Shown here: piece after piece, positions 1 to 24,800 of the stretch
Position numbering within the stretch: position 1 is the first letter of the stretch
How the letters are laid out: each line of letters starts with the position of its first letter
Virus record (IMG/VR): IMGVR_UViG_3300045988_085140
Reading direction: 5' to 3' (one strand)
DNA: 64,000 nucleotides
Origin: a virus
Translations under genes and position numbers: made by a program
The notes under the pieces: model-generated
Seen by the model: only the letters and a program-made list of their open reading frames with translations
The model's database searches: none
What the model was told of the DNA's origin: nothing

Positions 1-93
1 ATACTCTTGGGAACTCCATTGGGTTCCGTTTTGGGAAGTTCCCATTTGAACTTGCCCTGCTGCAATAATTTTACCAGTAAACTTTACGTTCAT
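1..93 (-). CDS. N-terminal fragment (31 codons) of a DUF3127-like small OB-fold protein; gene runs off the window
   Basis: ATG at 93..91 (too short for the ORF track). MNVKFTGKIIAAGQVQMGTSQNGTQWSSQEY resembles Bacteroidota DUF3127 N-termini. Co-oriented with the exonuclease/ERF pair. Confidence 0.4.
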   Translation of the reverse strand, partial: MNVKFTGKIIAAGQVQMGTSQNGTQWSSQEY

Positions 94-101
94 ATCTATA
101 C

Positions 102-1025
102 TTAATTAAGTTTGATTCTTATTGATGGCTTGGTGGTCGTTTCCTTTAGATAGTGCTCGTAGTGGTCAGGCTCCGTGTCCTTGAACAGCTTCGTGTCGAA
201 GGTCTTCTTGGTGGTAGCTGCCACATAAGAGTAAGAACCGATGTTGGTCTTGATGGATTTCTGCTTGTTGGCTTCCATCATCTTCATCATCTGCTCCTTC
301 AAATCATCCTGCTTGATTTTCAGGGCATCCATACGAGCGGTTATCAATCTGTACTCCTGCTCTAGTGCTGAGAACTGCTCAGGAACTTCCACCTTATACT
401 GATAGTCTGTATCATCAGCGAGATAAGCGTTGATTAAATCGTCAATCTGATAATCTGCTACCCTAGGTAGTGGCTGGAACTTGCTCTGTCCGTTCTTGAA
501 CCACATACAAACAATCTCCTTCACCTTCAAGTCAGGATTCTGCTCCTCGAACCATTTGGCATAGATTGATAGCTGGAGCGATACGTTGTCGTAGTGAAGG
601 GTGGCGGTGGTCTTGTAGTCTACCAGATAGATGTTGCCTTCGCTGTCGGCAAAGATTCCATCAATGGCAGATGCGAAGTTCTCACCATCTGTAACAAGAT
701 ACTCGGATGCGACATAGTGTAAACCGAATGAGACTAGCATGCTATGGAAGGCTTGAAGCTCTTCTGTAGGGTTCGGGTACTTCTTGATGTCTGCATCGAA
801 GATAGAGCAGAAGGTTTCAAACGTATTGTGGATAAGACCTCCTCGTTCTGCTGCCTTCATCAATACCGATTCAGGAATGTTCTTGTAGGTGTCGGGGAAG
901 GCTTTCTTGATGAGCGTTCCTGTCACTCCTTTCAGTTCCTTCTCGCCGAGGAAGTACTGATGAGACTCCTCAATGAATGTAATCTTTGGCACATTCAGAG
1001 TGATTTTCTTTGTTGCTGCTGTCAT
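102..1025 (-). CDS. PD-(D/E)XK (RecB/Cas4-like) recombination exonuclease
   Basis: 307 aa. Nuclease core AIDGIF...LVDYKT (D...D-x-K) and N-terminal ESHQY...VTG motif. Ends 1 nt from the ERF gene. Confidence 0.7.
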   Translation of the reverse strand: MTAATKKITLNVPKITFIEESHQYFLGEKELKGVTGTLIKKAFPDTYKNIPESVLMKAAERGGLIHNTFETFCSIFDADIKKYPNPTEELQAFHSMLVSFGLHYVASEYLVTDGENFASAIDGIFADSEGNIYLVDYKTTATLHYDNVSLQLSIYAKWFEEQNPDLKVKEIVCMWFKNGQSKFQPLPRVADYQIDDLINAYLADDTDYQYKVEVPEQFSALEQEYRLITARMDALKIKQDDLKEQMMKMMEANKQKSIKTNIGSYSYVAATTKKTFDTKLFKDTEPDHYEHYLKETTTKPSIRIKLN

Positions 1026-1026
1026 A

Positions 1027-1635
1027 TTATTGTATACCTAATTGTTTCTTCTTGGCTGATACTGCTTGCATGAACTGAGCGTTAGAGCAGAGCGGCTGGT
1101 AATGCTGAATTACCCACAACAGATTGCCCTTACTAACGCATCTGCTCAGGTAAGCCAATCCTTCGTTCAGGTCGCTCGGGTGGTACTGAGGGGATGCTGA
1201 CTGCTGGGCGGTTGGCTGCTGAGTCTGTGTCTGTTGCTGCGCTTCCTGATGCTGCCCATCGTTGGTGGTATCAGAATCAGCATTATCATCAATAGCAAAG
1301 AGACCGTTGAGAGCATACTTTCGGGCGTAAGATGAGGATGCTCCAGTAATCTGACTGCCATCCATACCTTTCTTGCTTTCCTCTTCTCTAGCCCAACCAG
1401 TTGTTGTTTCACACTCGCCATTCTCGTTCTTGATTGTAGCAGTTGCCTTCACGTAGATGCGGTTGCCTATCAAGACTACATCATCGGTGATGATGAGCGT
1501 ACATTTCTGCTTGGCGAGTAAAGGCTTAACAGCTTCCAAGATGTCCTCAGCCTTGCGATACTTGTAGCCACCGAATTTATTGAACTGACTCTTCGGGGCT
1601 TTGAGTTCCGATTGAATTGCCATAAGTTCTTTCAT
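1027..1635 (-). CDS. erf: ERF-family single-strand annealing protein
   Basis: 202 aa. KFGGYKYRKAEDILEAVKPLL and GASSSYARKYALNGLF are ERF hallmarks. Q/T-rich C-terminal tail. Confidence 0.8.
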   Translation of the reverse strand: MKELMAIQSELKAPKSQFNKFGGYKYRKAEDILEAVKPLLAKQKCTLIITDDVVLIGNRIYVKATATIKNENGECETTTGWAREEESKKGMDGSQITGASSSYARKYALNGLFAIDDNADSDTTNDGQHQEAQQQTQTQQPTAQQSASPQYHPSDLNEGLAYLSRCVSKGNLLWVIQHYQPLCSNAQFMQAVSAKKKQLGIQ

Positions 1636-1656
1636 ACCTTATATGTATTTAAGTTG

Positions 1657-1773
1657 TTATTGATACTTCCATTCATAGTGGCTGCATCTGTAGCCACCAT
1701 CTGGGTTCTTATTCGGATTGTCACACATGGTCAAGAAGATACAATCGTGACAACTGTTTGCTTTATATCTCAT
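1657..1773 (-). CDS. 38-aa Cys/His-rich mini-protein (zinc-ribbon-like)
   Basis: Own translation: MRYKANSCHDCIFLTMCDNPNKNPDGGYRCSHYEWKYQ. Fills the gap between the terminator and erf. Confidence 0.3.
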   Translation of the reverse strand: MRYKANSCHDCIFLTMCDNPNKNPDGGYRCSHYEWKYQ

Positions 1774-1796
1774 ATTGTATGGTTTGAAATGTTCAA

Positions 1797-1830
1797 ATAA
1801 AAAACCCCACGGTTCTCACGAATGGTGGGG
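1797..1830 (-). terminator. Intrinsic terminator ending the tRNA/ncRNA transcription unit
   Basis: Minus strand: CCCCAC-N14-GTGGGG followed by UUUUUU. Confidence 0.6.
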
Positions 1831-2407
1831 AGAATGAATTTTATTTTAGTTTAACCTGAGCGGTCGCTACCGCATCGCAAATGTAATCTGTATGGTAAAT
1901 TTTAATATGTCAATATTTGCAATTTCCTTTAGAAAAGGAGGGGCAGTAAAATGAATATGATAAAAACAGCCACCTCCGTGGAGCGACATCTATACAATCT
2001 TGCCGGATGCTGAATCGCTCCTTGGTTCCCTTCTGCATTTATGGAGGCTTAGGACTCCCAGCACTAGTAATCGCACATATTGTAATATATCTGATTTCTA
2101 TAAAATAACCAATTATAACTATTGAACCGAATAGAAAAAAGAAAGCGTGCTGGCTGCATTAGAACCGATTTGTAGTTGTGCGCTCCTACCTTTAGATGCT
2201 ACCTTATTATATAAGGGTCACGGCATCAGGTCTGCTTCTTCACAAGTGAACTCCAAGTTTTTCCAAATTCCACCTATCAGGTGTATGTACTCGCTTGCCA
2301 CTTCCACGTCTAAGCACCATCTGTGGTTAATGATGCTCCTTTTGGGTACGTGTACCTCTCTAGGAAGGTTTATCCTATCCGATATAAAGCCTTGGAATCG
2401 GGCTATA
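1831..2407 (-). ncRNA. Candidate large structured RNA co-transcribed downstream of the tRNA
   Basis: About 575 nt with no credible ORF in an otherwise gene-dense genome. Bounded by the tRNA 3' end and the terminator. At least 7 local helices can be paired by eye (see findings). Confidence 0.35.
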
Positions 2408-2486
2408 TGGGGCGCAAGGTGGGACTCGAACCCACGACCTCGAAGGCTCATAAACCTTCATACTCTACCAATTGAGTTACTTGCGC
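2408..2486 (-). tRNA. Phage tRNA-like gene with encoded CCA and an expanded anticodon arm; isotype unassigned
   Basis: Acceptor stem GCGCAAG/CTTGCGC, D arm ACTC-AATTGGTA-GAGT, T arm GTGGG-TTCGAGT-CCCAC, discriminator C plus CCA. The anticodon arm is TGAAGG-TTTATGAG-CCTTCG (20 nt where 17 is canonical). Confidence 0.7.
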
Positions 2487-2657
2487 TGGGTAAAAACTTA
2501 AAACATGTAAAATTATAACGACTAAAGTTATAGTGGAGACTGGGAGTAGCAAACTCCAAAAAACCTCTGCTGTTTTCAATGACTGAAAGATTATAAGACT
2601 TAACACATTAATAACTTAATACTTAACTATTCTTGTGAGGTTCAATCTCCATATATC

Positions 2658-2750
2658 TTACTTGCCTACCTCATTGAAGTAGGAGTGAATTTCCTTAACG
2701 GCAACAGCGATAGTGATTACGCTAGCTACCAACATTACATCTGCTATCAT
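2658..2750 (-). CDS. 30-aa hydrophobic mini-ORF
   Basis: Own translation: MIADVMLVASVITIAVAVKEIHSYFNEVGK. Lies directly after the Xis-like gene. Confidence 0.2.
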   Translation of the reverse strand: MIADVMLVASVITIAVAVKEIHSYFNEVGK

Positions 2751-2762
2751 AAGTTTATCTGT

Positions 2763-3077
2763 TTAATGGGTAAAACAATAGGCTGCTGCCTCTGATTTCA
2801 ACTCTGCCATGCTCTTTCTGCGGTTCTGAGTCATCCACTCTTCCAACTCGCTCTTCTTGAAGTAGAGTCGGTTGACGTTTGGTTTATAGCAAGGAATGAT
2901 GCGGTTCCTGACGTTCTCTCTCACTCCTCTAACCGTCATGCCAAGAATGATTGCAGCTTCATTAATGTTGAGCACATTCTTTGCAGCTATGAGCGAATAC
3001 TGCTCTATGCGGTCTAGCTGCTCCTTAATCTCTTTGTCTATCATATCAGTTGAATTTGATGGTTTGTTGACTGGCAC
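2763..3077 (-). CDS. Excisionase-family (MerR-like) HTH DNA-binding protein, putative Xis
   Basis: 104 aa. NINEAAIILGMTVRGVRENVRNRIIPCYKPNVNRLYFKKSELEEWM matches the excisionase-type HTH pattern. Confidence 0.55.
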   Translation of the reverse strand: MPVNKPSNSTDMIDKEIKEQLDRIEQYSLIAAKNVLNINEAAIILGMTVRGVRENVRNRIIPCYKPNVNRLYFKKSELEEWMTQNRRKSMAELKSEAAAYCFTH

Positions 3078-3939
3078 TAGCTGCCTTGGCTGGCTCTGTT
3101 CTACCAGTGCCCTTATCGCTGGGAGTGTTCTCCTGCTCTATCAAGGGGAGAATGCCCTTCGCTTTGAGTGATTCATATAGGAAGATTCTTCCTTTCGTTG
3201 TCCACTCGGTGTTGTACTTCACATCGTGCCGACCATCACTCCTTACGATTTCTACTGCTCTGCTGTGAACATATCCACCTTCTAGGAATTGTGCAAATAA
3301 TATCCATTTACCTCTTACCTTGTGTTGGATTCTCATAGACTCCAACTCCTTGTTGAGTCTCATGGCAGTCATGCCGTAGTCCTGAGCAATCTGAGTAACG
3401 GTCATGGTGGCATTACTCTGCAAGATTTTGTCGTAGTAGCTAACCTTAGGCAGCATTTCGGTAATCTTGTTGCCAAGTTCCATGTTCGCCTTGCTGATAG
3501 TGAGGATTTGTTCCTGCTGCTTCTTATTTTCCAAAGCTAGCTGCTGTTTCTCTTCCTCAGCCTTGACCAGAGATTTGAGAGCTTCGAGATAGTTCTGAGG
3601 AACGGATGGATTGGATTGTTCAATCTGTCTCTTCATAGCGTTGAAGGCTTCGATGTATTTCAGTTTGAACTCCATCGCCTTCTTGCCATTGAATCCCATC
3701 GCCAGCAGAGTGAAACCATCTTGATTCATAATGAACATAGGATAACTCTGTTTGTTCTGCTCGTTGATGTAGGTCGTTTCTTCAAACATCGGGGTCTCGT
3801 CGTTTTTAACGATACCCACTTGAAGTATCTTCCTTATCGCTTTGAGAACATTATCATGAGGTTTCTCAAAGACCTCGGCAACCAGTTTACTATTTGTTAG
3901 GGGTTGGTTACCTTCACCTCTATAAACGATTTCATTCAT
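3046..3939 (-). CDS. Rha-family regulator with C-terminal KilAC antirepressor domain
   Basis: 297 aa. N-terminal LTNSKLVAEVFEKPHDNVLKAIRKIL (pRha). C-terminal TVTQIAQDYGMTAMRLNKEL...GGYV (KilAC/ANT). Confidence 0.8.
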   Translation of the reverse strand: MNEIVYRGEGNQPLTNSKLVAEVFEKPHDNVLKAIRKILQVGIVKNDETPMFEETTYINEQNKQSYPMFIMNQDGFTLLAMGFNGKKAMEFKLKYIEAFNAMKRQIEQSNPSVPQNYLEALKSLVKAEEEKQQLALENKKQQEQILTISKANMELGNKITEMLPKVSYYDKILQSNATMTVTQIAQDYGMTAMRLNKELESMRIQHKVRGKWILFAQFLEGGYVHSRAVEIVRSDGRHDVKYNTEWTTKGRIFLYESLKAKGILPLIEQENTPSDKGTGRTEPAKAASASQQTIKFN

Positions 3940-3958
3940 ATTGCCTCCTTTTTTATTA

Positions 3959-4156
3959 TTAAAGGAACACTACCTTGTCTGCCTTAACACCTCCGAACTC
4001 ATTCAGGGCATCATTCCTGATGTCTTCGGCTTGCTTGCTCTGACTTCTAAAACCTAGAGCGTTGTAGATGGTTTCCCTTCGGCATCCATATCGCTCAGCA
4101 AGTTTTTTACGTCCTTCGGGCGAAACTTTGATAATTTTTATCTTTTTTGCTTGCAT
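3959..4156 (-). CDS. Small HTH protein, Cro-like
   Basis: 65 aa. Putative HTH RETIYNALGF. Divergent from the CI-like gene across an operator-bearing spacer. Confidence 0.45.
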   Translation of the reverse strand: MQAKKIKIIKVSPEGRKKLAERYGCRRETIYNALGFRSQSKQAEDIRNDALNEFGGVKADKVVFL

Positions 4157-4227
4157 ATCTTAATTTTTTATTGTACTTTTGCTTCTAATAATTAAGCAAC
4201 TTGTTGTTTACGAGTGCAAAGGTAGTC

Positions 4228-4263
4228 ATTTCTTGCTAATTCGCCAAATTTTTAGCAAGAAAT
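4228..4263. promoter_or_regulatory. Perfect 12-bp inverted repeat, candidate operator in the CI/Cro intergenic region
   Basis: ATTTCTTGCTAA-N12-TTAGCAAGAAAT, between divergent genes 3959..4156 and 4312..4713. Confidence 0.5.
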
Positions 4264-4311
4264 TATTAACCGATTATGAATAATTAAGTATGATTTATAA
4301 ATGTAAAATGT

Positions 4312-4713
4312 ATGGAAGTAACTATTTATCAGCGAATTATGCTAATTTTAGAGGACAAGCAAGTATCGGTTAATGCTCTATCAAAGTTAGTCGATATGTC
4401 TCAAACTACCCTTAATACTCAGTTGAATGGTGAGCGTACTTTGTCTGCAAACGTTGTTGCCAAGGTTCTTGTAGCTTATCCTGACGTGTCTGCTGAGTGG
4501 TTGATGCGTGGGGTAGGTACTATGTATAGCAACCAAGATGCAGATGATTCATCTTATATGGTTGCTGAGACTCCTCATCATGAAGAACCTAAGATAGAAG
4601 AGTCTCATCAGGATGATTCCGTCTGGAAGGCGAAGTACGAAGAGTTAGAGAAACGCTATGACCAGCTATTGTCTATCTTGGGCGGTGGCATGAGACAAGC
4701 AAATGTTGGATAA
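4312..4713 (+). CDS. XRE/CI-like HTH repressor
   Basis: 133 aa. VSVNALSKLVDMSQTTLNTQLNGERTLSANVVAKVLVAYPDVSAEWLMRG is the typical Bacteroidota phage-repressor HTH. Confidence 0.7.
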   Translation: MEVTIYQRIMLILEDKQVSVNALSKLVDMSQTTLNTQLNGERTLSANVVAKVLVAYPDVSAEWLMRGVGTMYSNQDADDSSYMVAETPHHEEPKIEESHQDDSVWKAKYEELEKRYDQLLSILGGGMRQANVG

Positions 4714-4729
4714 TTAAAATGTGGTAGGT

Positions 4730-5233
4730 ATGAAGTATTGTGCATATCTTATTGTTCTTTTTACTCTTTGTTCTTGTGGAGACAAATATTTGAGAAAAAG
4801 AGTCAATACTTTAGAAAAGGAAGTTGATACCCTTAGAAATGAGATAGCCATATACAAGGGAATGGAGAGGGACGTTAGGTCTAGAGATTTAGACGATTTA
4901 GTGTTTTATATCTCTTCAAATCCTAAATATTACCATTATTATTCTGATTGTGCAGGGCTTACGGTTGGAAGTGGTAAGGTTGAATCTATAAGATTAGAAG
5001 AAGCTATAGATAAAGGTAAGGTTTCTTGTTCTATTTGTGACGAAAATAAGCAAATCTATTATGGTCGCAAAGATGAATCAGAGTCAGTATATATATGTAC
5101 AGGAGAAACTTCTACCAAGTATCATAGCGACCCTGATTGCCGTGGTCTCTCTCGCTGCTCAGGAGAAATAGAAGAGGTAAGCGAGGAGGAAGCTGAGGAT
5201 ATGGGCAGAACACCTTGCAAGATATGTTATTAA
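4730..5233 (+). CDS. Lipoprotein with two Cys-rich YH-x3-DC-x-GL...C-x2-C repeats
   Basis: Lipobox LFTLCSC after MKYCAYLIV. Repeats are YYHYYSDCAGL...CSIC and KYHSDPDCRGL...CKIC. ATG at 4730 preferred over GTG at 4721. Confidence 0.6.
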   Translation: MKYCAYLIVLFTLCSCGDKYLRKRVNTLEKEVDTLRNEIAIYKGMERDVRSRDLDDLVFYISSNPKYYHYYSDCAGLTVGSGKVESIRLEEAIDKGKVSCSICDENKQIYYGRKDESESVYICTGETSTKYHSDPDCRGLSRCSGEIEEVSEEEAEDMGRTPCKICY

Positions 5234-5247
5234 TTAAATTGTGAGAT

Positions 5248-5673
5248 ATGAAAAAGATTTTATGTTTTATGATGTTTATCTTGCTGCTTGTATCATGTAG
5301 CAAGGATTCTGGTGAGGAAGTTGGGCTGACTTCAAACTATATAGAGGTTGCTGGAGTCAGACATCAGATTGATAAATTCACGATTGAGAACGAAACCTAT
5401 TTTCGTATAGGCTCCAAGAAGGATGGGACTTATATTTCTTTCGGTTATACTTGGTACAAAGTACCGATTGGCGAAAAGGTATATTTCGTTGAGACAGACG
5501 AGTATTTGGATTATTTTGAGTTGGTGGATAGTTACAGAAAATGCGACTTAACAGATGGTTCTTCTGATAGTTTTTACTTAATAAAGAAGAATGGTGATAA
5601 GTATATCGTTAATATATATATAGGTTCGTCTAGATATAAGACGATTGTACATTATGAAGGAAAAATGATATAA
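5248..5673 (+). CDS. Lipoprotein of unknown function (moron candidate)
   Basis: 141 aa. Signal peptide and lipobox MKKILCFMMFILLLVSCS. Confidence 0.6.
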   Translation: MKKILCFMMFILLLVSCSKDSGEEVGLTSNYIEVAGVRHQIDKFTIENETYFRIGSKKDGTYISFGYTWYKVPIGEKVYFVETDEYLDYFELVDSYRKCDLTDGSSDSFYLIKKNGDKYIVNIYIGSSRYKTIVHYEGKMI

Positions 5674-5676
5674 AGA

Positions 5677-5708
5677 AAAGGCATCGGGAATAAATCTCGG
5701 TGCCTTTT
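5677..5708. terminator. Bidirectional hairpin between convergent genes
   Basis: AAAAGGCATCGGGA-loop-TCTCGGTGCCTTTT. A-run upstream and T-run downstream. Confidence 0.6.
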
Positions 5709-5711
5709 CTG

Positions 5712-6869
5712 TTACTTATCGAAGAACTTATCAATCAGCCCCATCGCCTCATCCTTCTTCTTATCCACAATCTTAGCATATATCTCAGTAGTGGATATTC
5801 GGGAGTGACCGAGTAGCTTGCTGGTGGTGTATATGTCGGCTCCAAGCGTGAGCATCATGGTGGCGAAGGTGTGCCGAGCGGTATGGAAGGATATATTCTT
5901 CTTGATTCCTGCTGCCTTCGCCCATACCTTAATATGATAGTTGATGTTTGGCTGCTGGCATAGTTCATAGAATACCAGTTCGTCATCCGTCTTTTCAGGC
6001 AACCATTTCATCGCCTCGTTGGATAGCTGATAGCTTACTACTCGCTGAGTCTTCTCCATCGTTTTGGTCAGGCGGTAGGATGATGTTCCGTCAGTATTCT
6101 TCACCTCTTCAATATCGCTCCATTTCAGCTTCCTGATGTCCGAGATACGTAGACCCGAAAAACATGAGAACATAAATGCTTGTTTGGTATGCTTGCTGTA
6201 GCATTCTGTTGCAGCCAGTTTCTTCACCTCCTCAATATCTAGGTATACTCGCTCGCTCTCAGGAGACCCGAACTTATAGCTTGGGTCTATGAGCGATAGG
6301 GGATTCATCTGAATGATGCCATCACGGACAGCCTGATTCAGAACCGTACCAAAGCAAGTAAGGTACACCTTCTTGGTTATTTCGCTGAACGGCTGCCCAC
6401 CTCTCTTGGTGGCAGTCCTCAGATACTCTATCCACTTCATGCAAAACTTCTTGTCTATGTCGACCATCTTGGTAGACTCGCCACAAAACTTCATGATATG
6501 CTTCTTCACATTCTCAATGGTCTTGCTGGATTCGTCCGACCTACTTGCCTTCTGCTTGGCAACCTTCACGATGTCTAGCCATTCTACCAAGCGCATGTTC
6601 TTGTTACTGCTGAATACTCCTGCCTTTCGGTTCTTCAAGTCGAGAACCCTCTGAGCCTTGATGATATTCGCACTAGCCATCGTCTCAGCATTCTTCGCCC
6701 TCGCCTTCGCTCTTTCTCTGCCAACCTCTGGGATGAGGTATAGCTTTAGAAATTCATAACTCCTCTTTCCGTCCATATAGATGTCCAGATAGATACTCTT
6801 GTTTCCGTTGGCAAGTTCCTTGAATCTGATAGTGACTGGCTCCTTTTCGATTGTTTTCTTCCTTCCCAT
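5712..6869 (-). CDS. int: Tyrosine recombinase / phage integrase
   Basis: C-terminal HTARHTFATMMLTLGADIYTTSKLLGHSRISTTEIYA (R..H-x-x-R..Y catalytic set). Start set at MGRKK; the ORF track extends to 6923. Confidence 0.9.
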   Translation of the reverse strand: MGRKKTIEKEPVTIRFKELANGNKSIYLDIYMDGKRSYEFLKLYLIPEVGRERAKARAKNAETMASANIIKAQRVLDLKNRKAGVFSSNKNMRLVEWLDIVKVAKQKASRSDESSKTIENVKKHIMKFCGESTKMVDIDKKFCMKWIEYLRTATKRGGQPFSEITKKVYLTCFGTVLNQAVRDGIIQMNPLSLIDPSYKFGSPESERVYLDIEEVKKLAATECYSKHTKQAFMFSCFSGLRISDIRKLKWSDIEEVKNTDGTSSYRLTKTMEKTQRVVSYQLSNEAMKWLPEKTDDELVFYELCQQPNINYHIKVWAKAAGIKKNISFHTARHTFATMMLTLGADIYTTSKLLGHSRISTTEIYAKIVDKKKDEAMGLIDKFFDK

Positions 6870-6905
6870 AAGCCTACATTTATTAATCTGCTGCAAAGAT
6901 AAGCA

Positions 6906-7253
6906 ATTTTTTGTTACTCGCAAATTTTCGGTAACAAAATAGTAACAAAACTACAACATATCTATTGTATACCTACCTGTCATGTATTATACGGATAATT
7001 ATTTTTTCGTATAAATAAAATGTTGATAACCAAGCAGGTAGGTGTATAATAGATATACAAAAGGAGTACTTTCACAAGCACTCCTTCTCATATTATACAA
7101 AAACATTATGAATGCTTATTTGAACCTTGTAACCTATTGATAGTCAATACTATTAGAAATGGTCTGTTTTTATCGAGTAACAAAATAGTAACATAAAAGA
7201 GTTAAAGAAACTAAATCGCTTGTTTTGCTCGCTACAAAGGTAACAAAATAAAC
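6906..7253. repeat. attP-like region with GTAACAAAA arm-type repeats
   Basis: 17-bp perfect direct repeat GTAACAAAATAGTAACA at 6931-6947 and 7177-7193. GGTAACAAAATA at 7239-7250. Inverted copy TTTTGTTACTCG at 6909-6920 versus CGAGTAACAAAA at 7174-7185. Confidence 0.5.
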
Positions 7254-7375
7254 TTGAATGCCCAATATACTTTAACCTACTTTAACTTTGTAATCATTTG
7301 TATATCTACTGCACACCAAGCGTATACCTAAAATCTGAATATCTTACAGATTAACGAATTACATATTTTTTCACA

Positions 7376-7407
7376 TTTGGTAGTTTCAAAAATTATTTCT
7401 ATCTTTG
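7376..7407 (+). promoter_or_regulatory. Canonical Bacteroidota promoter (-33 TTTG / -7 TAtcTTTG)
   Basis: TTTG at 7376-7379, 20-nt spacer, TATCTTTG at 7400-7407. Confidence 0.55.
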
Positions 7408-12796: not shown

Positions 12797-12824
12797 CAGA
12801 ATTGGTAACAAGAATTTGGTAACA
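12791..12824 (+). repeat. Three direct TGGTAACA repeats at the junction before the giant ORF
   Basis: Copies at 12791, 12803 and 12817. The first two contain in-frame TAA stops of the upstream gene. Confidence 0.5.
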
Positions 12825-12836
12825 AACATATATATC

Positions 12837-15800
12837 ATGGCAGAAAGACCATTATACACTTTATACAAGAATCTGAAAGCACAGAACTATGATGTGCCTG
12901 ATGATTACAATAAGTTTGAGAGTGCTCTGACAAGAGACGGAAAAGGTGGTGCGGATAACAGACATGCTATCTACGAGAACTTGAAGGCTCAGAACTTTGA
13001 TGTTCCATCAACTTATGAGCGTTTTTACTCTGCACTCTTTGAACCACGTAGTAAGACTTCATCTAGAGCGAAGGGCGGTAGTGTTCCTATGAGTGCTGCT
13101 GACCGTGCTCGTTTCTCTGCTGGGGCAGCAGCTATCTCGGCTAGTGCTCAGCAGACAATGAACAATGCTGGCAGATACAACAGACTGAAACAACGCAAGC
13201 AGAAACAGCAGAAGGATTTCGGTCGTGTGAACTTGGGTACACATCAGACTCCTTATGGTGGTGATGCAAACAATGTTGTGAAGGATGATTTTGCTTACAA
13301 TCCTGAGACTGGCAAGACTGGCGCATACGTTACATCGGACAATGAGAATGTTTATTCTCTTCCTGAAGCTGAGCAGAAACAAGCTATTCTTGACCAGCAA
13401 AACAATGCATATCAGGAAGCGGTAGATACTGGTGAGATACCATCTGCCTTTGATGTTCGTGACAAGAAAGGTAACTATGACTTGCAGGATAACATCGGCA
13501 AGAATGGAACCTACCTTACTGAGGAAGGTGCTCAAAAGCAGTTTGACAAGAAATTGGCTGATGCCTATGCCCGAAAGAAGGAGATTGAAGCTCTTATCGC
13601 TGAGGATAATCGCCAACACGGAAATCCTTTGCTCTCTTATGGTGCTAGTATCGGTGCAAGTAACGGAAGAACTGCTGAGCAGAGTGACTATAGAAATAAG
13701 TTGGCAACCTCTCTTTCTCTGGTTACTGAGCAGATTGGAGCGCTTGAAGCGGTGAAACAATATCCTACAAGTAGCTGGGGTGAGGATGCCTTGAAGGCTC
13801 TTGACAATACTGCATTTACTGCAAAAACATGGGATTTCGGTCTGACTGACTTCGCTATCATGGGGCAGATGGAACGTATCAAGACAAAGATGGATAACAA
13901 TATTCCTCTCTCTGGTTCTGATAAGATGCTCCTGAAGAGTAAACTTGGTGCGGATGCTGCTACGGCTATCGAAGATGAGAAGATGGGTAACGTCTATCGT
14001 TGGACGAAAATTGCAGGGAAGAGTCTCCCATTTATGGCTGACTTCTTCCTGACTGGCGGTTATGGTGGTATTACCAAGGGCATCAGTCGTGGAGCCTTGA
14101 AATTTGCTGCTAAACGTGGCATGGGCAAGGTGAGTGCTGCCATCTTGAAGAATACTGGTATCGTGGCTGGCGATGTTATCGGCTCGTATGCAATGGCTGG
14201 AACTGAGCAAGCGTTGAAGACTGGTGCTGACATCATGCAGCGACATCTTGGTAATCTGTATCAGGATGAGAAGGGTGATTATAAGTTTGGTACTTTCGAT
14301 GAGAATGGAAATCTTCTGCATGAGGGTGGTGAGTCTATTGGTACTGCTCTCTATAAGGGTATGACCTCTGCTATGGTAGAGAACTATACAGAAAAACTTT
14401 TCGGTCACAACTATGGTATCAAGAAGGGTGCTGTCAACTTCATGGAGAAACATGGTATGAATGCTTCTGCTGAGTTCTTCAAGAATATCGGCAAGAGTGG
14501 ATGGTACACCAATTCCAAGAAGTGGATGGAGAAGTTCGGTATCAATGGTTTCGCTGAGGAAGTGATGGAGGAGGAAATTGGTATTCCTCTTCATGCCCTG
14601 CTGGATGGTGAAGGTAAGGTGAGCGACCTTCTTGATGCTAAGCAGCAACTCGACATCATCGGTGGTATGGCTATCTCGGTCGGTTCTATGTATGCGATGG
14701 GTGCTGGCTCCCGACCAGTAAAAGGTATCTACAATCGTGCTCAGTACTACCGATTCCGCAACAAGGTGAACGTGGCTGATAGTGATGCAGAGAACCTTAT
14801 GGGCGATAACTGGGCAGACATCAAGGATAAGATAGACAACGCAACTAATGAGCAGATGGGTAGTGTGCTGGCTGATATTCTCAGACAGAGAGATACCATG
14901 ACCAAGGAACAGATTAATGCTGCTGTTAACTATGGTGTAAACCTGATGAAGATGCGTGGCTACAATATTGCCAAGACTGCTGAAATGAATGCCAAGGAGA
15001 TTACCAACGAACCAACAACACCTGAGGAGCAGCATCAGGCAGATATTGACAACGCTTATTCTGAGGGGCATGATGCTGATGATGCAGATAAGCATGATAT
15101 TCAGATTCAGCAGGAAGACCAGATGAAGACTCTTGCAGCAGCATTGGGTATCTCTGAGCAGCAGTTATCAGCCATGAGCGATGAGGAACTGGAATCCCTG
15201 ACTGGGCAGGATGATAAACTTGACCAAGCTATCTATGACTACCAGTTGTCTTCTGCCCGATACCAAGGTGTGGTTGATGATGCACAAGATAAGGTTGACC
15301 TCGCTGCACATCAGGCAGAACAGAGAGTTGATATGTACACAGACCAGAGTCGTGGTTCTGTTCGTAACGCTACTATCAAAGCATCAGGCGGCTTGGAAGA
15401 CTATGGTGTATATATTATCAGTGGTAATATTGCTACTCATGATGATGGCTCCATTGATGTAAGCAATAGCGATGATATGATTCTCTATTATGACCCGACA
15501 ACCAATAGCGTTGAACATGCTGATGCGTTGATGGTCGCTGAACTGGGTGAAGAACTACCTGCTGATGATGTGAAGGCTCAGGCGGTATCTGATGCTAAAG
15601 AGAATGCTATCAAGGAAGTGGCTGGCATCATTGATGGAACCGTTGAAGTTGGCTCCCAGTTCAATGTGACTGATACTGATGGTACTGAACATACCTATGA
15701 AGTGTTGGCTGACTATGGTGATGGTACTGCTGCTATTTCTATAGATGGTAACGTGGTGGAGAATCCTTATTCGCTTGCAGACTTGCAGCAGATGAAAGAC

Positions 15801-18800
15801 TTGGAAGACCAGAAGAGACTGGAAGCTGCCAAGGCTGAGCGTGAGCAGATGGAGAAAGAACGTGCTGCTCAGCAGAATCAGGAGACTGAGCAGACTCAAC
15901 CTTCATTTGACTTCAATCAGATTCTCAATGATAATGGTAACGTGGTGCTCGTTGATGTGCTCGACAAGGATGGTAATACCAAATACCCTGACTCTAGATT
16001 ATTCCTTATCCGTGATGCTGGTGCTAAAGCTAAGGTAGTTGAGTTGAAGAGTGATGGTACTCTTGTTCCTCATGCTGTGAACAAAGAAGATGTGGCTACA
16101 ATCTCTTCTATGTCGCTCGATGAATACAAACAAGCTATGCCTGAATCCTCAATGATTGAGGATAATAGTGGAGAGAATAGAGGTGAGATAGAGGTGGAAG
16201 CTCCGACAATAGAGGGCGAGGTCGCGGCTCCTGTTAATGAGGTCGCGGCTCCTGAATCTGCTGAGACTCCTGCAACTGAGCAGACTCCTGCTGCTCCTGC
16301 CATTACTCTTGAAGATGGAACCATCGTGCCTATGCTGGAGGATGGCAATCCTGACTTCTCGAAGCTGACTGCCGCACAGACTGCTGAGCTATATGATAAT
16401 CAGTTTGGTGAGGATGCAGATAGTATCGTATCTGGATATGTGTCTGATGCAAAGAAGGCACTCGACAAGGCTAGCAACATGACCGTGAAGGGCAAGACTT
16501 TCGTGGAACAGAAGGCTGCTAAGGATGCCAAGGAGAAGGCTATTGCTGATGCTAAGGCGGCTTATGACTCTGCTATCGCTATCCGTGATGCTTATAATGA
16601 GCGACAACTTGCCAAGGTGGAAGATACTGCTGAGGGTAGAAAGGAACTCATTGAGAAGGCAAGAAGAAAGTTCGCTCGCTTGAAGAGTGCGGTGAAGGAT
16701 GATGCTGAGGCGGTGGCTCAAATCTATAAGGAGACGGTTGGAACTCTGCTGCATCGTCTGTATGATGGTACTGGCATTGACGTGACAGATACGATTCCGC
16801 TTACTGCCGAGGAGTATGTGGCTAGTAACCTCGGTGCTCACTCTCTCAACTATGAGGGAACAGAGACAAGTAAGGGCGTTAAGCAGGAGACTGGATTGAG
16901 TAGAGAAGACTTTGCCAAGACTCAGTTGCTCGCTGCTGATGGCAATGGAACTACTATTGATGAGCTCGTTCATAGTCTGTGGGAGAATCGTCCATCCAAC
17001 CTTGAATCACTAGACACTCAGGATATTCGTAATGCTCTTATCAGTGTACTCAATAGCGGTTTCAAGGCATCGGAAGCAAGGAATTTTGTTGAAAATATTC
17101 GCATTGCTCAGGCAGAGAACATACTTGAAGAGCAGAAACGTGCTCAGGAGAATGCAGCCTATGCTGAGCAGCACAAGGCTGAGCAAGAGGCCGAGTTGAA
17201 GGCGAAGTCGGATGAAAAGGCTGAGTTGAAGGCGAAGTCAGAAGCGAAGTCGGATAATGAATCGGATAATAAATCTGATGATTTGTCTAATGAAACGGAT
17301 AATGATAAGATAAATGACAATATAAATGATAATATAAATGTTCCTGAGGATGCTACTGATGAGAATCCTTTAGGCGCAGAGCGTGATGAATCTGACCTTC
17401 CTTTCTCTACCAAGGAGAATGGCAAGCAGCAGACAACTGCCGAGCGTGCTGCTGACGTAGAGAAGAATAAGGTGGATGATATGAAGGTCGTTGACAATAT
17501 CGTGGGCGAGAAGACTCGCAAGGCTTTCGAGAGACTGGCTAAGATGATGGGTGCTAACATTCAATGGCAGTACTCAGACAAGTTGGGTAACGGCTGGATT
17601 CAGGAGACTACGGATGCCGATGGCAACGTTCATCGTACAATTTTCATCACTCTTGACTCTTCTATCACGGAAGGTGCTCAGTTTATCTTCGGTCACGAAA
17701 TGACTCACCAAATCAAGAACCTGAACCCTGCTGCATACAATGAGTTGACTCAGCTTGTGCTTGATACCTATGGCTCTGATGCCTTCGACAAGGCGGTAGA
17801 TGAGACTATGCAGAGATATTCCGATGCAGGATTCTCTGGACGTGCTAGAGATTACTATGCTGAGGAGGTTGTTGCTGATGCGGTAGGCGAAATGATTCGT
17901 GACCTCAACTTGGCTCATACTCTCGCCATGAAGATGTCTCATCCTCTGCTCGCTGCTATCCATGAGATATTACAGAAGATTAAGTTGGCATTCTTTGGTA
18001 CTGAGTATAGCGATGTGACCAAGAACATCATCCGCTCCATTGAACAAGCATACGTGAAGACTGCCAATGGTCAGGTGACAAACTCCGAGACTGGCGAAGA
18101 TGTTTCATTCTCTCTACGTCAAAAGCCTGAACCTAAGAAGAAGGGTATCGGATATAAGGTATTTGTGCTAAAGGATGGTAAACTCTATCCTCCGATGGTA
18201 GCGAACCCTGACGGTGCAGAAACCCCAGTCGGTGTGTGGCTCGATGCTGATGCGGCTCCTATTGCTGGAGAAAGCAAGACTGGCAGACCTCAGGTTAAGC
18301 AGGGCGGTAAGGGAACACAAGGGGGTAGCGGTAAGCTAGCCTATAGACCAGGCTGGCATCTTGGTGTCGTGCCTTACGCTATCCAGTTCAATCGCAAGGA
18401 TGCTGAGGGCAACAAGACTCTCTTCCCAAAGAACTTCGTTTTCGCTGAGGTGGAGTATGCTGCTGATGTAGATTATCAGGAGGAAGCTCGCCAAGAGGGT
18501 ATCAATCCATCGGGCAAGTATCAGCATTCATTGGCTGGCTTGAAACATCTGCCTACTGATGGATATTATATGTATCGTACCAACCCGAACCCTGAGACTG
18601 ACCCTTGGGTGATTACTGGTGCGATGAAGGTGAACCGTATCTTGACCAGAGCAGAGCAAGCGGAACTTGTGAAGAACGCTGGTCGTGAACCTCAGCAGAT
18701 TCAGGAGGGCGATATTGTTACTGATGATGTCGTGAACAGCATCAATCAGGAGATAGCTGATGCTCCTAAGTTCTCGTTGAAGGATAATCAGGAGAATCCT

Positions 18801-21800
18801 CTGAATCAGGATGGTACTTTGAAACTGGATAAGATTAAGTCCGTTGATGAATTGACGGATGAAGACTTCACTAGTGCCTTTCGTAATGTAGAGCTTCCTG
18901 CTATACCAAAGAATGTGGATGCTGCTATAGGGGCAAACGGAAAGCCTATTGTTATCAAGAAGAATATTTTTGAGAAGAATTGGAATGCTCACAAGTTTAC
19001 TCCTGCTGAAAGCAAAAAGGTATTGAATGATGCTTTATACAATACTGATTTAGTAAGGCACACACAGCCAACAAAGAAGCCTAACCATTGGGTTGCAATC
19101 AAGTTGGATGATAAAAGTCCTATCACCGTGTTGGAAGTAAACGACAACAAGAATAATGTTGAAGTTGTTGGTTGGTATACACTTGATGAAAGAAATCTTG
19201 GGAGAATAAAAAGACAAGCTGAACGAAATGGCGGCGAACTCATTATGTTAACTCCTAAAGATGATAAGGTGGAAAGCCTTTCCACTCCTCCGCTCAGCTC
19301 TGCTGCAAATATAATCAATTCTTTTGAAACTACCAAGGAAAATGGCGAAAAAGTTGATGTTGAGGGCACAAAATTCTCATTGAAAGATGAAGAATACCTG
19401 AAAGCGGTGGAAGATGGCAATATGGAAAAGGCTCAGAAGATGGTGAATGAAGCTGCTGATGCTGCTGGCTATTCTACAGATTCCAGCTATCAAGGTACAT
19501 CTGCCTTCAATGGTGCTGCACCTTGGGGTAATGGTTACTTCTTGACAAAGGACGAACGCAAGGAGGCATGGGATAATGGCGAGTTTGAAGGTGAATCAAC
19601 TCTTGGTGATTATATCAATGATGATATTGATGGCGGCAACTTGGAGGAGTTGACTAATGCCGCATCTTATCGTGCAGCTGACCCTATGCGTAAGGAGGCT
19701 ATTGATAACGTTCGTAATGCTATTCAGAAGAAAGCTAAGACTATTACAATGTATCGTAGTGTTCCTTCTGATGTGAAGGAAGGTTCTTTCCGAAATGGTG
19801 ACTGGGTTACTCCAAGTCGTGCTTATGCTGTTGATAATGCAAAATTGCATGGATGGGGTGACGATTACAACATCATCGAACAAAAAGTTCCTGTTGATGA
19901 TGTGTGGTTTGATGGCAACGATATTGCAGAATGGGGCTATGGTCGTGAGGAAGATTATATCAATGATACAGACTTCGCCTATAAGAACAGCAAGAACAAC
20001 AAAAAGTTGCTTGATGCCGTTACCTATGATGATAATGGTAATGTGATTCCTTTGTCTCAGAGATTCAATGAGAAGAATAAGGATGTGCGTTTCTCTTTGA
20101 AGGATGAAAAAACTCTTGCAGGAGTGCATAACATTACTGAGGAGAAACTGAGAAAGGCTTTGAAGCTGGGTGGCTTTGCCAATCCTTCTTTAGCTGTAAT
20201 TGATACCAACAAGACTGGTCACGACAACTTTGGAGAGATTTCCTTCATCGCTCCTTCTGCCCTTTTGGATAAGCGTACTGGCAATACTGGTGGTACATGG
20301 ATAACTGATGCCTATACTCAGCGTTATCCTTCCGTAGAGCGAGAAATGAGCGAAAAGGGGTATCGGAAGTTTGAAGACTGGGTTGATAGCCTTGATTACC
20401 CAAGTGGAGCTAAGGCTGAGATTGAGAGACAGGCAAAGGATGCCCTAAGTGACAATAATGCTCCTGCTTGGGAGTTGATGTACTTGAAGGAAAAGGGTAT
20501 TGATATTAAGGAGTATGATTCAAGAATTGATTATCGCTGGAAAGAGATTATCAGTGACCATCCTACTGCCGAGGATATTTTGAATAGTATGAAGACTGAC
20601 CCTGAACTGAATGAAAAGGTTACAAGTCTGGCTAAGCATGCCATCATCCATCCTACTTGGGAAAAGGTTTCTTTGGAGGTGAGAAGAAAGATGTATAAGG
20701 AGACTGGCGTTAAGGCTAGCCCTATCAATCCACAAGTAAGAAAACAGACTAAGGAAATCTTTGAGCGTGACTATGCGCCAACCTTGCTTAACAAGGACGG
20801 CAGTCCAAGAAAAAAAGATGTGAAGAAGGTTGTTGAGGATATTGTGAAGGAACATAAAGATACCAAGAAGTATGACTTCTATCTGTCTAAGGTGAAGGCT
20901 AGTAATTACGTCAACAAGAATGGTCTTTATGATGATTACATCAGATGGCAGGAGAACAAACTGGATGAGTTCGGAACGAAGAACCGTATCTTCCGTGGCT
21001 ATACTAGGGATGGTTCCCGAAAGTATGTGCCTGAGACTCTTGAAAATGTTTCAAAGGCTATGAGGGAAGAAGCAGATGGGCAGACCAATGGAAGCGAATA
21101 TACCTCGTTTGGTAGCTTTATCGCAAAGTTGGCTAGTCGTGTTGATTCTACAGACGAAATGCGTGCCAACAAGGATAAGTTGTCTTCTAATAAGGATAAG
21201 GAAGAATTTTACGAGAAATGGAGTGATGTTTATTATGACCTTGCCAAGTTCTTGTATAATGATGTGTTCTATGGTGAGCAGAGACTTCACGATATTGTAT
21301 TGCAGTCTGACCCTAAGAAGTATGCCAAGAAAGAATATGGCATTACCCTTACTCCTACCTTCATGAAGAAACTGGATGCCTTGAAGAATGCAGTACAGAC
21401 AGAGTTGAAGAGTGCGTACTTTGAGACTAAGTACAACAGACCTCTCCGTCTAAACGAGTTTGCTGCTGCTGTGGTTCCTGATAACTTGGGCAAAGATGTA
21501 CGCAAGGGTATAGAGAATGCTGGCTTACCAATGTATGACTACGACCCGAATAAGGAAGGTGACCGCAGTCGTGCTTTCAATGAAGCTATCAATAGTAGCG
21601 ACAATATCCGGTTCTCTCTCGCTGGTGTGCGTGGTGCGGCTGCTGCTGACAAGGCAGAGGAGCGTAATGCTCGTATGGATAATCTCTCCGTGGCTCGCAA
21701 GATGGAAGAAGAGAAGAAAGATGCCAAGGCTATCAAGATGGCTACTGGATGGGAGCGTGGTGCTGATGGCAAGTGGAGATACGAAATGCCTGATGCCAAG

Positions 21801-24800
21801 ATAAAGGACACGATGGACGTAGGCGGTGGACACATCGTTAAGCGTTACGAGGATGATATGCTCTGGAATGGCGGCAAACTATTTGATGTGATTGATGCAC
21901 CTGAATTATTTAAGGCTTATCCTCAGTTGAAGGGTGTTCGTATTGATACGGATGCCATTATGAACGATATGCCTTCACATGGTGAATATGATTCAAAAAC
22001 CAACACCATAACCATTCATGCTGATGAGTTGAAATATATGAATGACATATTGAATCACGAGATTCAGCATGCTATTCAAGGTATTGAGGGATTTGCCACT
22101 GGAGGTAGTCCTACAACTATTAGAGGTGAAGTCAAGAAGAGGTTTAATGAGGTCACAAAACAGATTAAGCAGCTACGAGCAGAAGGTAAGGAAGATGAGG
22201 CGAAGGCTCTCATAGAGAAGAACAGAGGTCTTTATGATGCCTACATGAAGAATGATGATTTCAATAGCTACAAGTCACTTGCTGGCGAGGTGGAGGCAAG
22301 AAATGTGCAGGAAAGAATGAACATGACTCCTGAGGAGAGAAGAAAAACTCTCGCTGAATCTACTGAGGACGTGGCTCGTAAAGACCAGATTTTCTTGGGT
22401 GTGGGTGATGTGTCCTTCTCCCTCCGTGATATGGCTGACGGAAAGGAGAGTGGGGCGGCAGATATGGCTGAGGATTTGAAGAGTCTGAACACTCCTGATG
22501 AGGTGGATGATGCTATCAAGACTGCTATTGAGGATATGCCGAGCGGCTGGAAGATGGCTAACAAGAAGATGATTCATATTGCTCAGGCTCTGGGCGAGAA
22601 TCGCAAGGCAGAGATTGCTGGCGAGGAACCTAAATTCTCCCTGAAGGATGGCACTCTCATTAAGGCTGGAACATACTTTAGCGGTGGCGGTCTTGTTGAG
22701 GAAGGCTTGAAGGGTATCATCGACCCAGTGGTGGCAGTGGAGTATGATGAGAAGATAAGCGGCGTATATCGCAACAATTTCGGGCAGCACATCGTTACTG
22801 CTGATGTTCGTGATGTTGACCCTAAGGAGTTGGTTAAGCAGATAGATGGCGAGGTGGAGTACTTCCATGCCAGCCCAGTCTGCAAGAACTACTCTCAGGC
22901 AAAGAGTAACCATGCTGAGGTGGAACTTGACAAGGAGACTGCTGCTAGTACTGCCGAGTTTATCAATGCTATTAAGCCAAAGGTTGTGACCATTGAGAAC
23001 GTGAAGGGATATAAGGATTCCGAAGCGATGAAGACTATCACCGATGCTCTGGATGCCAACGGCTATACTTGGGATGCAGATGTGTATAATGCTGCTGACT
23101 ATGGCGGCTACACAAACCGAGAGAGATTGATTGTCCGTGCGGTTCGTGATGGTAAACTTCCTGCCAAGCCTGAGAAGATGGCACGCAAGAGCGGATGGTA
23201 TGAAGCTGTGGCTGATATTATCCCGACCTTGACAGAGAAGAAGAATGGTGTGGCTCCTTGGATGGATATTCGCTTGAAGGCTGATGGCATTGACTGGAGA
23301 AACATTGACAAGCCATTGTATGTGATGGGTAGTGCCTATGCTGACGGCAAGGTCCCTCATGCCTTCGCTGATGAACTGCTGCCAACACTCAGAACGAAGA
23401 GTGGTGATGTGATTGTGATGCCTGATGGTAAGGTATATCGTGCCATGGGAAGAGTGCTCGCAAGAGTATCAGGAGTGAGCGATGATTACAAGATGCCATT
23501 CTCCGAGAACCTGAGCCATATCATCATCGGCAACGGAATCCCTACCCAGTTGACGGAACATGTGATTGCTCCTCTGCTTACTGGCTCTGACCCTAAGTTT
23601 AGCATCCGTACCTATCATGGTACTGGTGCTAGCTTTGACAAGTTCGATTTCAGCCACATGGGTGAAGGCGAAGGTTCACAAGCATTTGGATGGGGTGGTT
23701 ATGTTACTAACTCTAAGGATATTGCTGAGGACTACACAAGACGTGCCAAGATAAGGAAAGATAATGACGGTTTTGAATTTGTGACAGATATGTCTGCCAA
23801 TAACAAAGATATGGTAAGACAATATATCTATAAATATAAAGATGTAAACAAGGGATTGGATGCTATGAGAAAAGACCTTTCTTCTGCTCTAGAAATGTTC
23901 CCTGATGATGATGATTTAAAGGAACTTAGCAATATTCTTGCAAAGAAGAATGAGGAAATAGCTGTTCCTGATAATATTGCTTATCTTTATGATGTGGATA
24001 TTCCTGATGATAATGGAGATTATCTTGACTGGGAGAATAAACTGAAAAAATCTCATTTGAATAAGGTAAATAAGGAGTTGGTTAGAATAGGCAAGGAGCC
24101 TATTGAGACCATTTATCCAAGTCGTGTTGATGGTAAGGTAAGAGGTCAAGACTTGTATGATGAACTTTCCTCTATGCTTGGTTCTAAAGAAGCAGCTAGT
24201 AAGTTGTTAAGTGATGCTGGCTTTGTTGGAATCAAGTACCCTGCTGGAACCATTTATGGCGGTGCAGAGGAAGGCGATTACAACTATGTGATATTCGATG
24301 AGACCAATGCCAATATCGTGGGTAATACCCGATTCTCCTTGCGCTATGACCAGTTTGAGCACGACCTGAACCAGTGGAAGAAGGATAATAATCTGCCAAA
24401 GGATGCTCAGAGGCCAACCATCCCACAACGCAACGCTGGTGAGAGTGCCGTTGACTTCCTGAGGAGAGTGGACGAGTACCGCAAACAGATGGCTCTGTGG
24501 AAGACTGCTCCAACCTACGAGCAGCATCTTCTAAGTGATGATACTGCCCTTGGAGAGTTCAACCGAGAGTTGCAGCGTGGTTCTGTTCTGAAACGTATCG
24601 CCTTCCAAGATAGTATGCTGGCTATCCGCAAGGCTCAGGAAGCTATCATGAAGGAAGTGGGTGTTGACCGTCTGAACATGGCTGAGGATGCCTATACTGC
24701 CGAGAACCGCAGTCACGGCAAGGGAAAGAACGAGTTTGAGGAATACAATAATGAGTTCTTGCAGCCATTGAGAAAGGCTTATCATCAGATGAAGAAGATA

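Follow-up and report, generated by a model that had tools for sequence, protein, structure and literature searches.

Several described systems join a structured RNA to a transfer RNA (tRNA) or to a fold that resembles one. The C4 antisense RNA of phages P1 and P7, located in an anti-repressor immunity operon, is matured by RNase P, mascRNA and MALAT1 exemplify tRNA-like processing handles, and in engineered tRNA-guide-RNA and ribozyme-guide-RNA-ribozyme cassettes the ends are set by tRNA enzymes or by ribozymes. Among the large noncoding RNAs of phages, GOLLD env-38 is found downstream of a Met-tRNA, and tRNAs form part of the linker in some GOLLDs. Twister ribozymes have been known since 2014; according to reviews, the bacterial members are located near phage genes and have been proposed to process transcripts, with their role still unknown. 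Here, we describe a minus-strand noncoding module in a 64,000-nucleotide (nt) stretch of viral DNA (IMG/VR record IMGVR_UViG_3300045988_085140; "the window" denotes this whole stretch), in which a type-P1 twister is assigned directly behind a strongly conserved noncoding RNA that itself follows a tRNA-like element.

The module is a composite minus-strand RNA and not one uniform 0.6-kilobase RNA. A preliminary description of positions 1797 to 2407 had proposed a dedicated, structured noncoding unit coupled to a tRNA gene in a temperate phage. This proposal is supported, with the gene being tRNA-like, and the unit is kept in every relative found. The functional unit also takes in the tRNA-like element and a leader, both of which lie beyond that interval. 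In transcript order, the RNA would consist of a leader hairpin, the tRNA-like element, an RNA of about 245 nt with two domains, the twister, one or two variable hairpins, a small hairpin, and a terminator (Table 1).

Relatives of the module were gathered by exact-pattern scans and by means of spurious translations of open reading frames (ORFs), and they comprise more than 200 distinct sequences from IMG/VR, ENA and Logan assemblies, and gut metagenomes. When 109 distinct sequences were folded together with RNAalifold, the 3' end of the ultraconserved block was found paired with the twister motif. The essential stems P1, P2, and P4 are present in canonical order with internal loops L1 and L2 and terminal loop L4, and the core nucleotides U2161-A2160-A2159, L4 (GUCCUAAGCC), AUAAA, and GAAGG align with UAA, GUCCCAAGCC, UAAA, and GAGGG of the Rfam consensus, as seen in the window for the 3' half and in an orthologue for the full alignment; the defining stems, loops, pseudoknots T1 and T2, and core nucleotides of the class were taken from a twister review. 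The 24 pairs of this fold are paired in 99.8% of cells across 101 sequences, compared with 31 to 47% in slid controls. Pseudoknot T1, made up of three Watson-Crick pairs between L4 and the 3' strand of L1, occurs as CCU/AGG in most sequences, as UCU/AGA in four distinct sequences, and as CAC/GUG in another four, with all three pairs compensated, and a GGUUU/AAACC variant compensates one pair of P1. The T2 pairs, in which the conserved GC of L2 meets two nucleotides of L4, are present and invariant and are consequently uninformative for covariation. The twister is kept in all 73 of the distinct copies that have enough sequence.

Comparison with the Rfam model of the class (RF03160) leads to the same assignment. 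In E-value mode, the window gives a weak twister-P1 match (2091->2025, 21.4 bits) with a poor or misassigned 5' half, and the window copy was missed because of its 82-nt P3 insert. Orthologues with a short insert of about 47 nt match the full model (positions 1 to 68) at 56.8 and 56.7 bits, with E values between 1.4e-12 and 1.7e-10; for the 56.8-bit match, the E value is 1.4e-12 when a 211-nt stretch is searched alone and 1.6e-10 when four whole loci are searched. The Infernal alignment of the L092 orthologue assigns the nucleotides identically to the fold based on RNAalifold. On the strength of sequence and covariation, the element is assigned as a complete type-P1 twister, a homologue of the known class and an atypical, previously unrecognized member of it, for which self-cleavage is predicted between U2161 and A2160.

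Two further observations concern the twister. The U-rich tract at 2140-2130 was considered as a terminator and rejected, as it is absent in other lineages and sits within the P3 loop. A gut-metagenome contig (L240, positions 2295-6783) carries an array of 68 clustered regularly interspaced short palindromic repeats (CRISPR), with the repeat GTTCTAATCGCACCTTTATGGAATTGAAAT in its likely transcribed orientation. Spacer 20 of this array matches the twister 3' half (2067->2032) at 36 of 36 positions in relatives and at 35 of 36 in the window, and spacer 31 corresponds to another site of the window phage (61112->61079). With the orientation judged from the position of the degenerate repeat and from the AT-rich leader side, both CRISPR RNAs would be complementary to minus-strand transcripts. 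RNA-guided targeting of expressed RNA would fit these matches, although two spacers prove nothing.

The RNA to which the twister is joined shows the strongest constraint in the locus. Among about 60 phages that are 90 to 97% identical overall, the conserved block is 3 to 6 times more conserved than the flanking coding sequences (mean pairwise differences of 0.029 to 0.055) and about 8 times more conserved than the tRNA-like element, a contrast that is inflated only slightly by the selection of this group through an exact 36-mer within the block. The strongly conserved part is limited to 2407->2024, and the distal segment 2020->1880 is a swappable hairpin module. A mobile element or phage attachment site was set aside as the cause of the ultraconservation, for which the twister, the cloverleaf, and the covariation provide a better explanation. 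Across the whole block, 58 pairs are paired in 99.2% of cells, compared with 33 to 41% for slid partners, and 10 pairs have changed on both sides. Cells changed on both sides number 134, against 26.7 +/- 4.3 in shuffled alignments, and none of 500 shuffles reaches 134. These counts hold on 208 sequences, the pair 2215/2203 shifts from C-G to A-U in 14 to 21 sequences, and the divergent L222 lineage adds compensated variants by eye. The folds of the module are supported by covariation. As no family of Rfam 15 matches the block, in the window even at an E value of up to 10 or in the relatives that were also searched, this RNA of about 245 nt may be regarded as a candidate new family.

The seven helices listed in the preliminary description can be placed into this context. 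Most are supported across the more than 200 related sequences: those at 2337->2313, 2283->2271, and 2216->2202 show either compensated base changes or a stem that is kept while its loop varies, and the one at 1873->1860 is nearly invariant in most lineages. The helix at 1923->1874 is not conserved. At 2021->1980 and 1977->1937, hairpins are indeed found, but their sequences are replaced by different hairpins in other lineages. The first of these (hairpin A) is swapped for AAGACAC...GUGUCUU or CCUAG...CUAGG and is absent in the L025, L041, and L075 types; the second (hairpin B) is swapped for GGGCGCAC...GUGCGCCC or GGCGGUGGUG...CACCACCGCC. An AT-rich spacer follows, and then the conserved GCGGUAGCGACCGC hairpin and the terminator. 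The intrinsic terminator that had been read at the end of the unit is confirmed by its conservation in relatives, including L061, where it takes the form CCCGAUGGUUC-GUGA-GAAUAGUCGGG and pairing is kept through compensatory changes; a simple terminator scan missed it because of the loop-size rule of the scan.

At the other side of the conserved RNA, the tRNA of the preliminary description is recognized by both ARAGORN and the Rfam tRNA model, though with an atypical anticodon arm, and ARAGORN labels it tRNA-??? (tatg). Its acceptor, D, and T arms are sound. The cloverleaf is paired in 96.3% of cells, with both sides changed in 10 pairs (by arm, covariation is seen in four acceptor, two D, and two T pairs), and in one lineage the acceptor stem is fully compensated (GCAUAGG/CCUAUGC). 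The CCA end encoded in the window is not kept in relatives. In the anticodon arm, a stem of 6 base pairs (bp) closes the 8-nt loop UUUAUGAG (2454->2447), and such a 6-bp stem and 8-nt loop with a four-base "anticodon" occur in 84 of the 109 distinct copies (77%). Another 17 of the 109 have a 7-nt CAU loop, are called tRNA-Met, and carry a pyrimidine at position 37. Some anticodon arms are swapped for a 4-bp mini-hairpin that itself shows compensatory change, and some copies have large D-loop insertions. A cloverleaf is therefore present, but the anticodon arm departs from that of a decoding tRNA, for which a 5-bp stem, a 7-nt loop with U33 and a purine at position 37, and a conserved anticodon would be expected, and the element is for this reason called tRNA-like here. 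As the anticodon arm is plastic while the acceptor and T arms are kept, the element would fit a processing handle or mimic better than a decoding tRNA.

The variation of the tRNA-like element is concentrated in its anticodon loop, for which at least 17 alleles were counted, and the anticodon differs even among near-identical phages. No other spot of the locus varies as much, and many alleles have CAU at shifted positions. Relaxed constraint alone does not account for such variability, and the loop may be a specificity determinant. Within the RNA itself, no site complementary to the loop was found at a consistent position. Complementary 7- to 9-mers near -600 in the upstream HTH_17 and Ant messenger RNAs (mRNAs) were rejected as a cis target, since they do not covary with the loop allele, and a search of the rest of the window for antisense targets of the tRNA-like element and the conserved block returned only 12- and 13-mers, about the number expected by chance in a rough calculation. 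Upstream of the tRNA-like element, the leader is present in all lineages, and its hairpin covaries (GGAGU/ACUCC, GAAGU/ACUUC, and GGAAU/AUUCC). The shape of the leader, with a 5-bp stem, a 5-nt loop, and conserved single-stranded flanks, is reminiscent of the nut/boxB sites of phage lambda.

When these elements are considered jointly, we favor, with moderate confidence, a reading in which the conserved RNA owes its 3' end to the twister and its other boundary to tRNA processing. After cleavage at U2161|A2160, the conserved RNA would finish in a defined 3' end (...GGUUCU) that bears a 2',3'-cyclic phosphate, and the dispensable 3' hairpins and the terminator would be separated from it. RNase P and the tRNA 3'-end machinery could be brought in by the acceptor/T-arm half of the tRNA-like element and so define the 5' boundary. 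Such processing would yield a stable RNA of about 247 nt, or of about 326 nt if the tRNA-like part stays on, and this RNA may then act in trans, either during lysogeny or early in infection.

Several results weigh against this proposal. The twister score of the window, and likewise those of the orthologues, lies under the Rfam gathering score of 67.2, which is why the ribozyme is unannotated and why a standard scan does not pick up the window copy. The folding energy of the region is no better than that of shuffled sequences (z = -1.19 over the 611 nt, z = -0.83 over the conserved 280 nt, and z between -0.7 and -1.3 overall, nonsignificant on either strand, with the plus strand similar), and the region is consequently not "hairpin-dense" beyond chance when a single sequence is considered, as had been suggested; the structural support rests on covariation and not on hairpin density. 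The extreme variability of the anticodon loop is left unexplained by a pure role as a processing handle, and searches in the RNA itself, the upstream mRNAs, and the rest of the window revealed no target or partner for the conserved RNA. A Bacteroidota-type promoter pattern (TTTG ... TAnnTTTG) was sought at a conserved upstream distance, and no promoter was identified. Finally, a terminator inside the operon could point to a cis-regulatory role instead.

Such a role forms an alternative that we regard as unlikely: the module would be a cis-regulatory element of the early-left operon that gates transcription or mRNA stability of the 38-amino-acid ORF, Erf, and the exonuclease. It could conceivably do so by put/nut-like antitermination or as a switch timed by the ribozyme, with cleavage either breaking the link between RNA and polymerase or giving the downstream part a 5'-OH. 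The location of the module amid the early genes and on their strand, the strong conserved terminator just before Erf, the boxB/nut-like appearance of the conserved leader, and the processing of polycistronic transcripts by ribozymes that reviews have proposed are all consistent with this. However, a two-domain RNA of 245 nt whose conservation surpasses that of its supposed target genes far exceeds the needs of a put/nut system, the tRNA-like element would have no obvious role in such a device, and no N-like protein was identified, the upstream 30-amino-acid ORF being hydrophobic. It is distinctly unlikely, in our view, that the module instead remains one intact structured RNA of about 650 to 700 nt, analogous to GOLLD or ROOL and with an inactive or purely structural twister fold. 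The context, a prophage RNA that adjoins or is fused with a Met-like tRNA, does resemble that of GOLLD and ROOL, and conserved structure lies on both sides of the predicted cleavage site. Against this stand the retention of all features of the catalytic core in each of the 73 copies together with the covariation of T1, which argues for an active ribozyme, and the lineage-specific, partly dispensable nature of the 3' hairpins. The preliminary description had envisaged a transcript of about 650 nt and a counterpart of GOLLD or ROOL. With a complete twister in its middle and a predicted cut at U2161|A2160, such a transcript is probably not kept intact, and neither GOLLD, ROOL, nor any other large RNA is matched in Rfam, with GOLLD and ROOL giving no match at the gathering threshold, at E values of up to 10 in the window, or at E values of up to 1 in four relatives.

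The two explanations that require a conventional gene fare less well. A genuine decoding tRNA, either Met/Ile-like or a quadruplet or frameshift suppressor, with the rest of the module as its 3' trailer and some unrelated elements, is very improbable. The good tRNA score, the good cloverleaf, and the copies called tRNA-Met could be accommodated in this way, but the prevailing 6-bp stem and 8-nt loop, the pyrimidine at position 37 of the 7-nt alleles, the change of anticodon among near-identical phages, the mini-hairpin arms, and the large D-loop insertions could not, and the supposed trailer would be about 8 times more conserved than the tRNA. To a protein-coding or decayed gene (the plus-strand ORF 2147-2518, the minus-strand ORF 2218-2451, or small ORFs), we give almost no credence. 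Gene callers predicted proteins in the region, and the plus-strand frame is open across the conserved block in most relatives, but this openness is due solely to the near invariance of the DNA: the "homologues" of this ORF are mutually frameshifted, and past about 45 residues diverged lineages switch frame and are colinear only as DNA. Insertions and deletions of 1 and 2 nt occur inside the block, substitutions track base pairing and not codon positions, and a PHROG search with the two ORFs, both of which cross the tRNA-like element, returned zero matches. All three stop codons are present in each of the six frames of 1774-2657, so that recoding of a stop codon can be excluded as well. The earlier statement that this interval holds no credible protein gene is borne out by these results.

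Beyond the processing scheme favored above, it could be speculated, though we consider it rather unlikely, that the tRNA-like element is the specificity module of a trans-acting phage RNA, with its hypervariable, mostly 8-nt loop under diversifying selection. The loop would mimic or engage variable host factors, such as anticodon nucleases, tRNA-targeting defenses, or tRNA-modifying enzymes, the 245-nt RNA would be the effector or scaffold, and the 2',3'-cyclic-phosphate end made by the twister would matter for activity or for ligation. If true, phage counter-defense or regulatory RNAs would gain a new class, and a bacterial twister ribozyme would for the first time have a defined biological role.

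Table 1. Features of the RNA module and its neighborhood in the window; mean pairwise differences refer to the group of about 60 closely related phages.
Feature	Position	Strand	Details	Mean pairwise difference
Leader element	2531..2565	minus	upstream of tRNA-like part; GAGG-U6-[GGAGU UUGCU ACUCC]-CAGUCUCCAC	
tRNA-like element	2486->2408	minus	ARAGORN and Rfam tRNA model, 53.8 bits	0.0755
Conserved block	2407->2167	minus		0.009
Domain I of conserved RNA	2249..2399	minus	multihelix; closed by long-range helix 2399-2391/2257-2249 (RNAalifold)	
Domain I hairpins	2384-2371, 2369-2354, 2337-2313, 2283-2271	minus		
Domain II of conserved RNA	2176..2245	minus	closed by 2245-2241/2180-2176 (RNAalifold)	
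Domain II inner parts	2231-2228/2191-2188, 2225-2223/2199-2197, 2216-2202	minus	two helices; hairpin (2216-2202)	
Twister 5' half	2147..2166 (2166->2147)	minus	P1 GGUUC (2166-2162), predicted cleavage-site loop U2161|A2160 A2159, P2 UGCA (2158-2155), T2 G2154 C2153, P3 CAGCAC (2152-2147)	0.003
P3 insertion	2065..2146 (2146->2065)	minus	U-rich tract and AT-rich variable spacer, 82 nt; 47-93 nt in relatives	0.055 (about 6 times the block)
Twister 3' half	2024..2064	minus	P3 GUGCUG (2064-2059); P4 GGAG/CUCC (2058-2055/2046-2043), loop UCCUAAGC; AUAAA (2042-2038); P2 UGCA (2037-2034); GAAGG (2033-2029); P1 GAACC (2028-2024)	
Pseudoknot T1	C2053 C2052 U2051 with A2031 G2030 G2029	minus		
Pseudoknot T2	G2154 C2153 with G2048 C2047	minus		
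Hairpin A, lineage-specific	1980..2021	minus	GGAGCGA...UCGCUCC	
Hairpin B, lineage-specific	1937..1977	minus	GGAGGUGGC...GCCCCUCC	
Small hairpin	1860..1873	minus	GCGGU-AGCG-ACCGC; near-invariant in most lineages	
Intrinsic terminator	1830->1797	minus	long stem, CCCCACCAUUC-GUGA-GAACCGUGGGG-U6; read from sequence	
Exonuclease	102-1025	minus		
Erf	1027-1635	minus		
38-amino-acid ORF	1657-1773	minus	Cys-rich (C..HDC..C..C); between terminator and Erf	0.055
30-amino-acid ORF	2658-2750	minus	strongly hydrophobic; directly upstream of RNA module	
Helix-turn-helix (HTH)/excisionase-like gene	2763-3077	minus	HTH_17	0.029
Ant/Rha gene	3046-3939	minus	anti-repressor	
cro-like gene	within 1-7000	minus	early region	
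Repressor gene	within 1-7000	plus		
Tyrosine integrase	5712-6923	minus		

The surroundings of the module are those of a temperate phage, with positions 1-7000 of the window forming its lysogeny and early region. The module lies in the early-left operon between the anti-repressor/HTH genes and the Erf/exonuclease recombination genes, and all relatives share the gene order Erf ... RNA ... HTH_17, Ant/Rha. In other lineages (L065, L066, and L071), the place of the 38-amino-acid ORF is taken by a 112-amino-acid gene without a Pfam match. An ORF of the same length as the 30-amino-acid ORF is called at the equivalent place in two diverged relatives (L060 and L064), and this ORF may encode a small membrane peptide. 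HNH homing-endonuclease genes (NUMOD4/HNH_3) are found in the recombination module of relatives, adjoining Erf in L066 (2088-2687) and farther downstream in L064 (310-2094), and these insertions would point to active mosaicism of the recombination module. Elsewhere in the window, a stretch of 27 to 29% GC at 6900-7400 adjoins the integrase gene and may be an attachment site or the prophage end, and a giant single ORF of 5,035 amino acids occupies 12816-27923 on the plus strand.

The relatives also provide information on the host. IMG/VR yielded 59 contigs at first and at least 119 later, diverged contigs (71 to 87% identity) came from ENA and Logan assemblies, and at least 119 human-gut metagenome contigs carry the module. 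No close relatives were found among the deposited phage genomes of the INPHARED collection. The module is also present in two species-representative genomes, the chromosome of Segatella copri HDE04 and a metagenome-assembled genome of an uncultured Prevotella, and these matches indicate Segatella (Prevotella) copri as the probable host of the phage.

With the most conserved sequence of the locus flanked by a twister joined to its 3' end and a tRNA-like element at its 5' end, a directly testable hypothesis of excision is obtained, and bacterial twisters are offered a testable job, the trimming of a phage RNA. As S. copri is an abundant and cultivable human gut bacterium, and as more than 200 natural variants are at hand, the locus lends itself to such work. 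It also shows that covariance-model scans can miss ribozymes with long inserts, and the family-wide 8-nt hypervariable anticodon loop adds an unexplained feature of tRNA mimicry.

When the module is compared with described systems, one likeness is to the YrlA RNAs (RF02553), which are similarly modular and have a tRNA-like domain fused to other helices. The Rfam matches to YrlA are weak (20 to 24 bits, far under the gathering score of 69) and confined to the T-arm and adjacent sequence, and no Rsr/Ro gene was seen near the module. With GOLLD and ROOL, it shares the setting in a prophage often beside tRNAs, here a temperate phage with a tRNA-like gene fused upstream, and the absence of a known function or protein partner. 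It differs from them in that its conserved core is only about 245 nt long, in that a self-cleaving ribozyme is predicted inside it, and in having no sequence or structure match to either. The tRNA-linked processing systems are similar in that a tRNA-like fold beside a functional RNA would set one end and a ribozyme the other, but no antisense target covarying with the variable loop was found here. We found no description in the literature of a natural arrangement of tRNA-like element, noncoding RNA, and twister, nor are we aware of any natural pairing of a tRNA-like element and a twister described in bacteria or phages.

A close correspondence is to the type-P1 twister (RF03160). Both have the order P1, U|AA, P2, GC, P3, P4 (loop GUCCUAAGCC), AUAAA, P2', GA(A)GG, and P1', both form the pseudoknots T1 and T2 and lie in a neighborhood of phage genes, and orthologues of the phage twister give a significant Infernal match. 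The phage twister departs from the class in its poorly conserved P3 insert of 47 to 93 nt and its subthreshold scores, in its Bacteroidota host (Segatella), and in being fused directly to the 3' end of a conserved noncoding RNA. It is this direct fusion that suggests a concrete role for the ribozyme in 3'-end formation.

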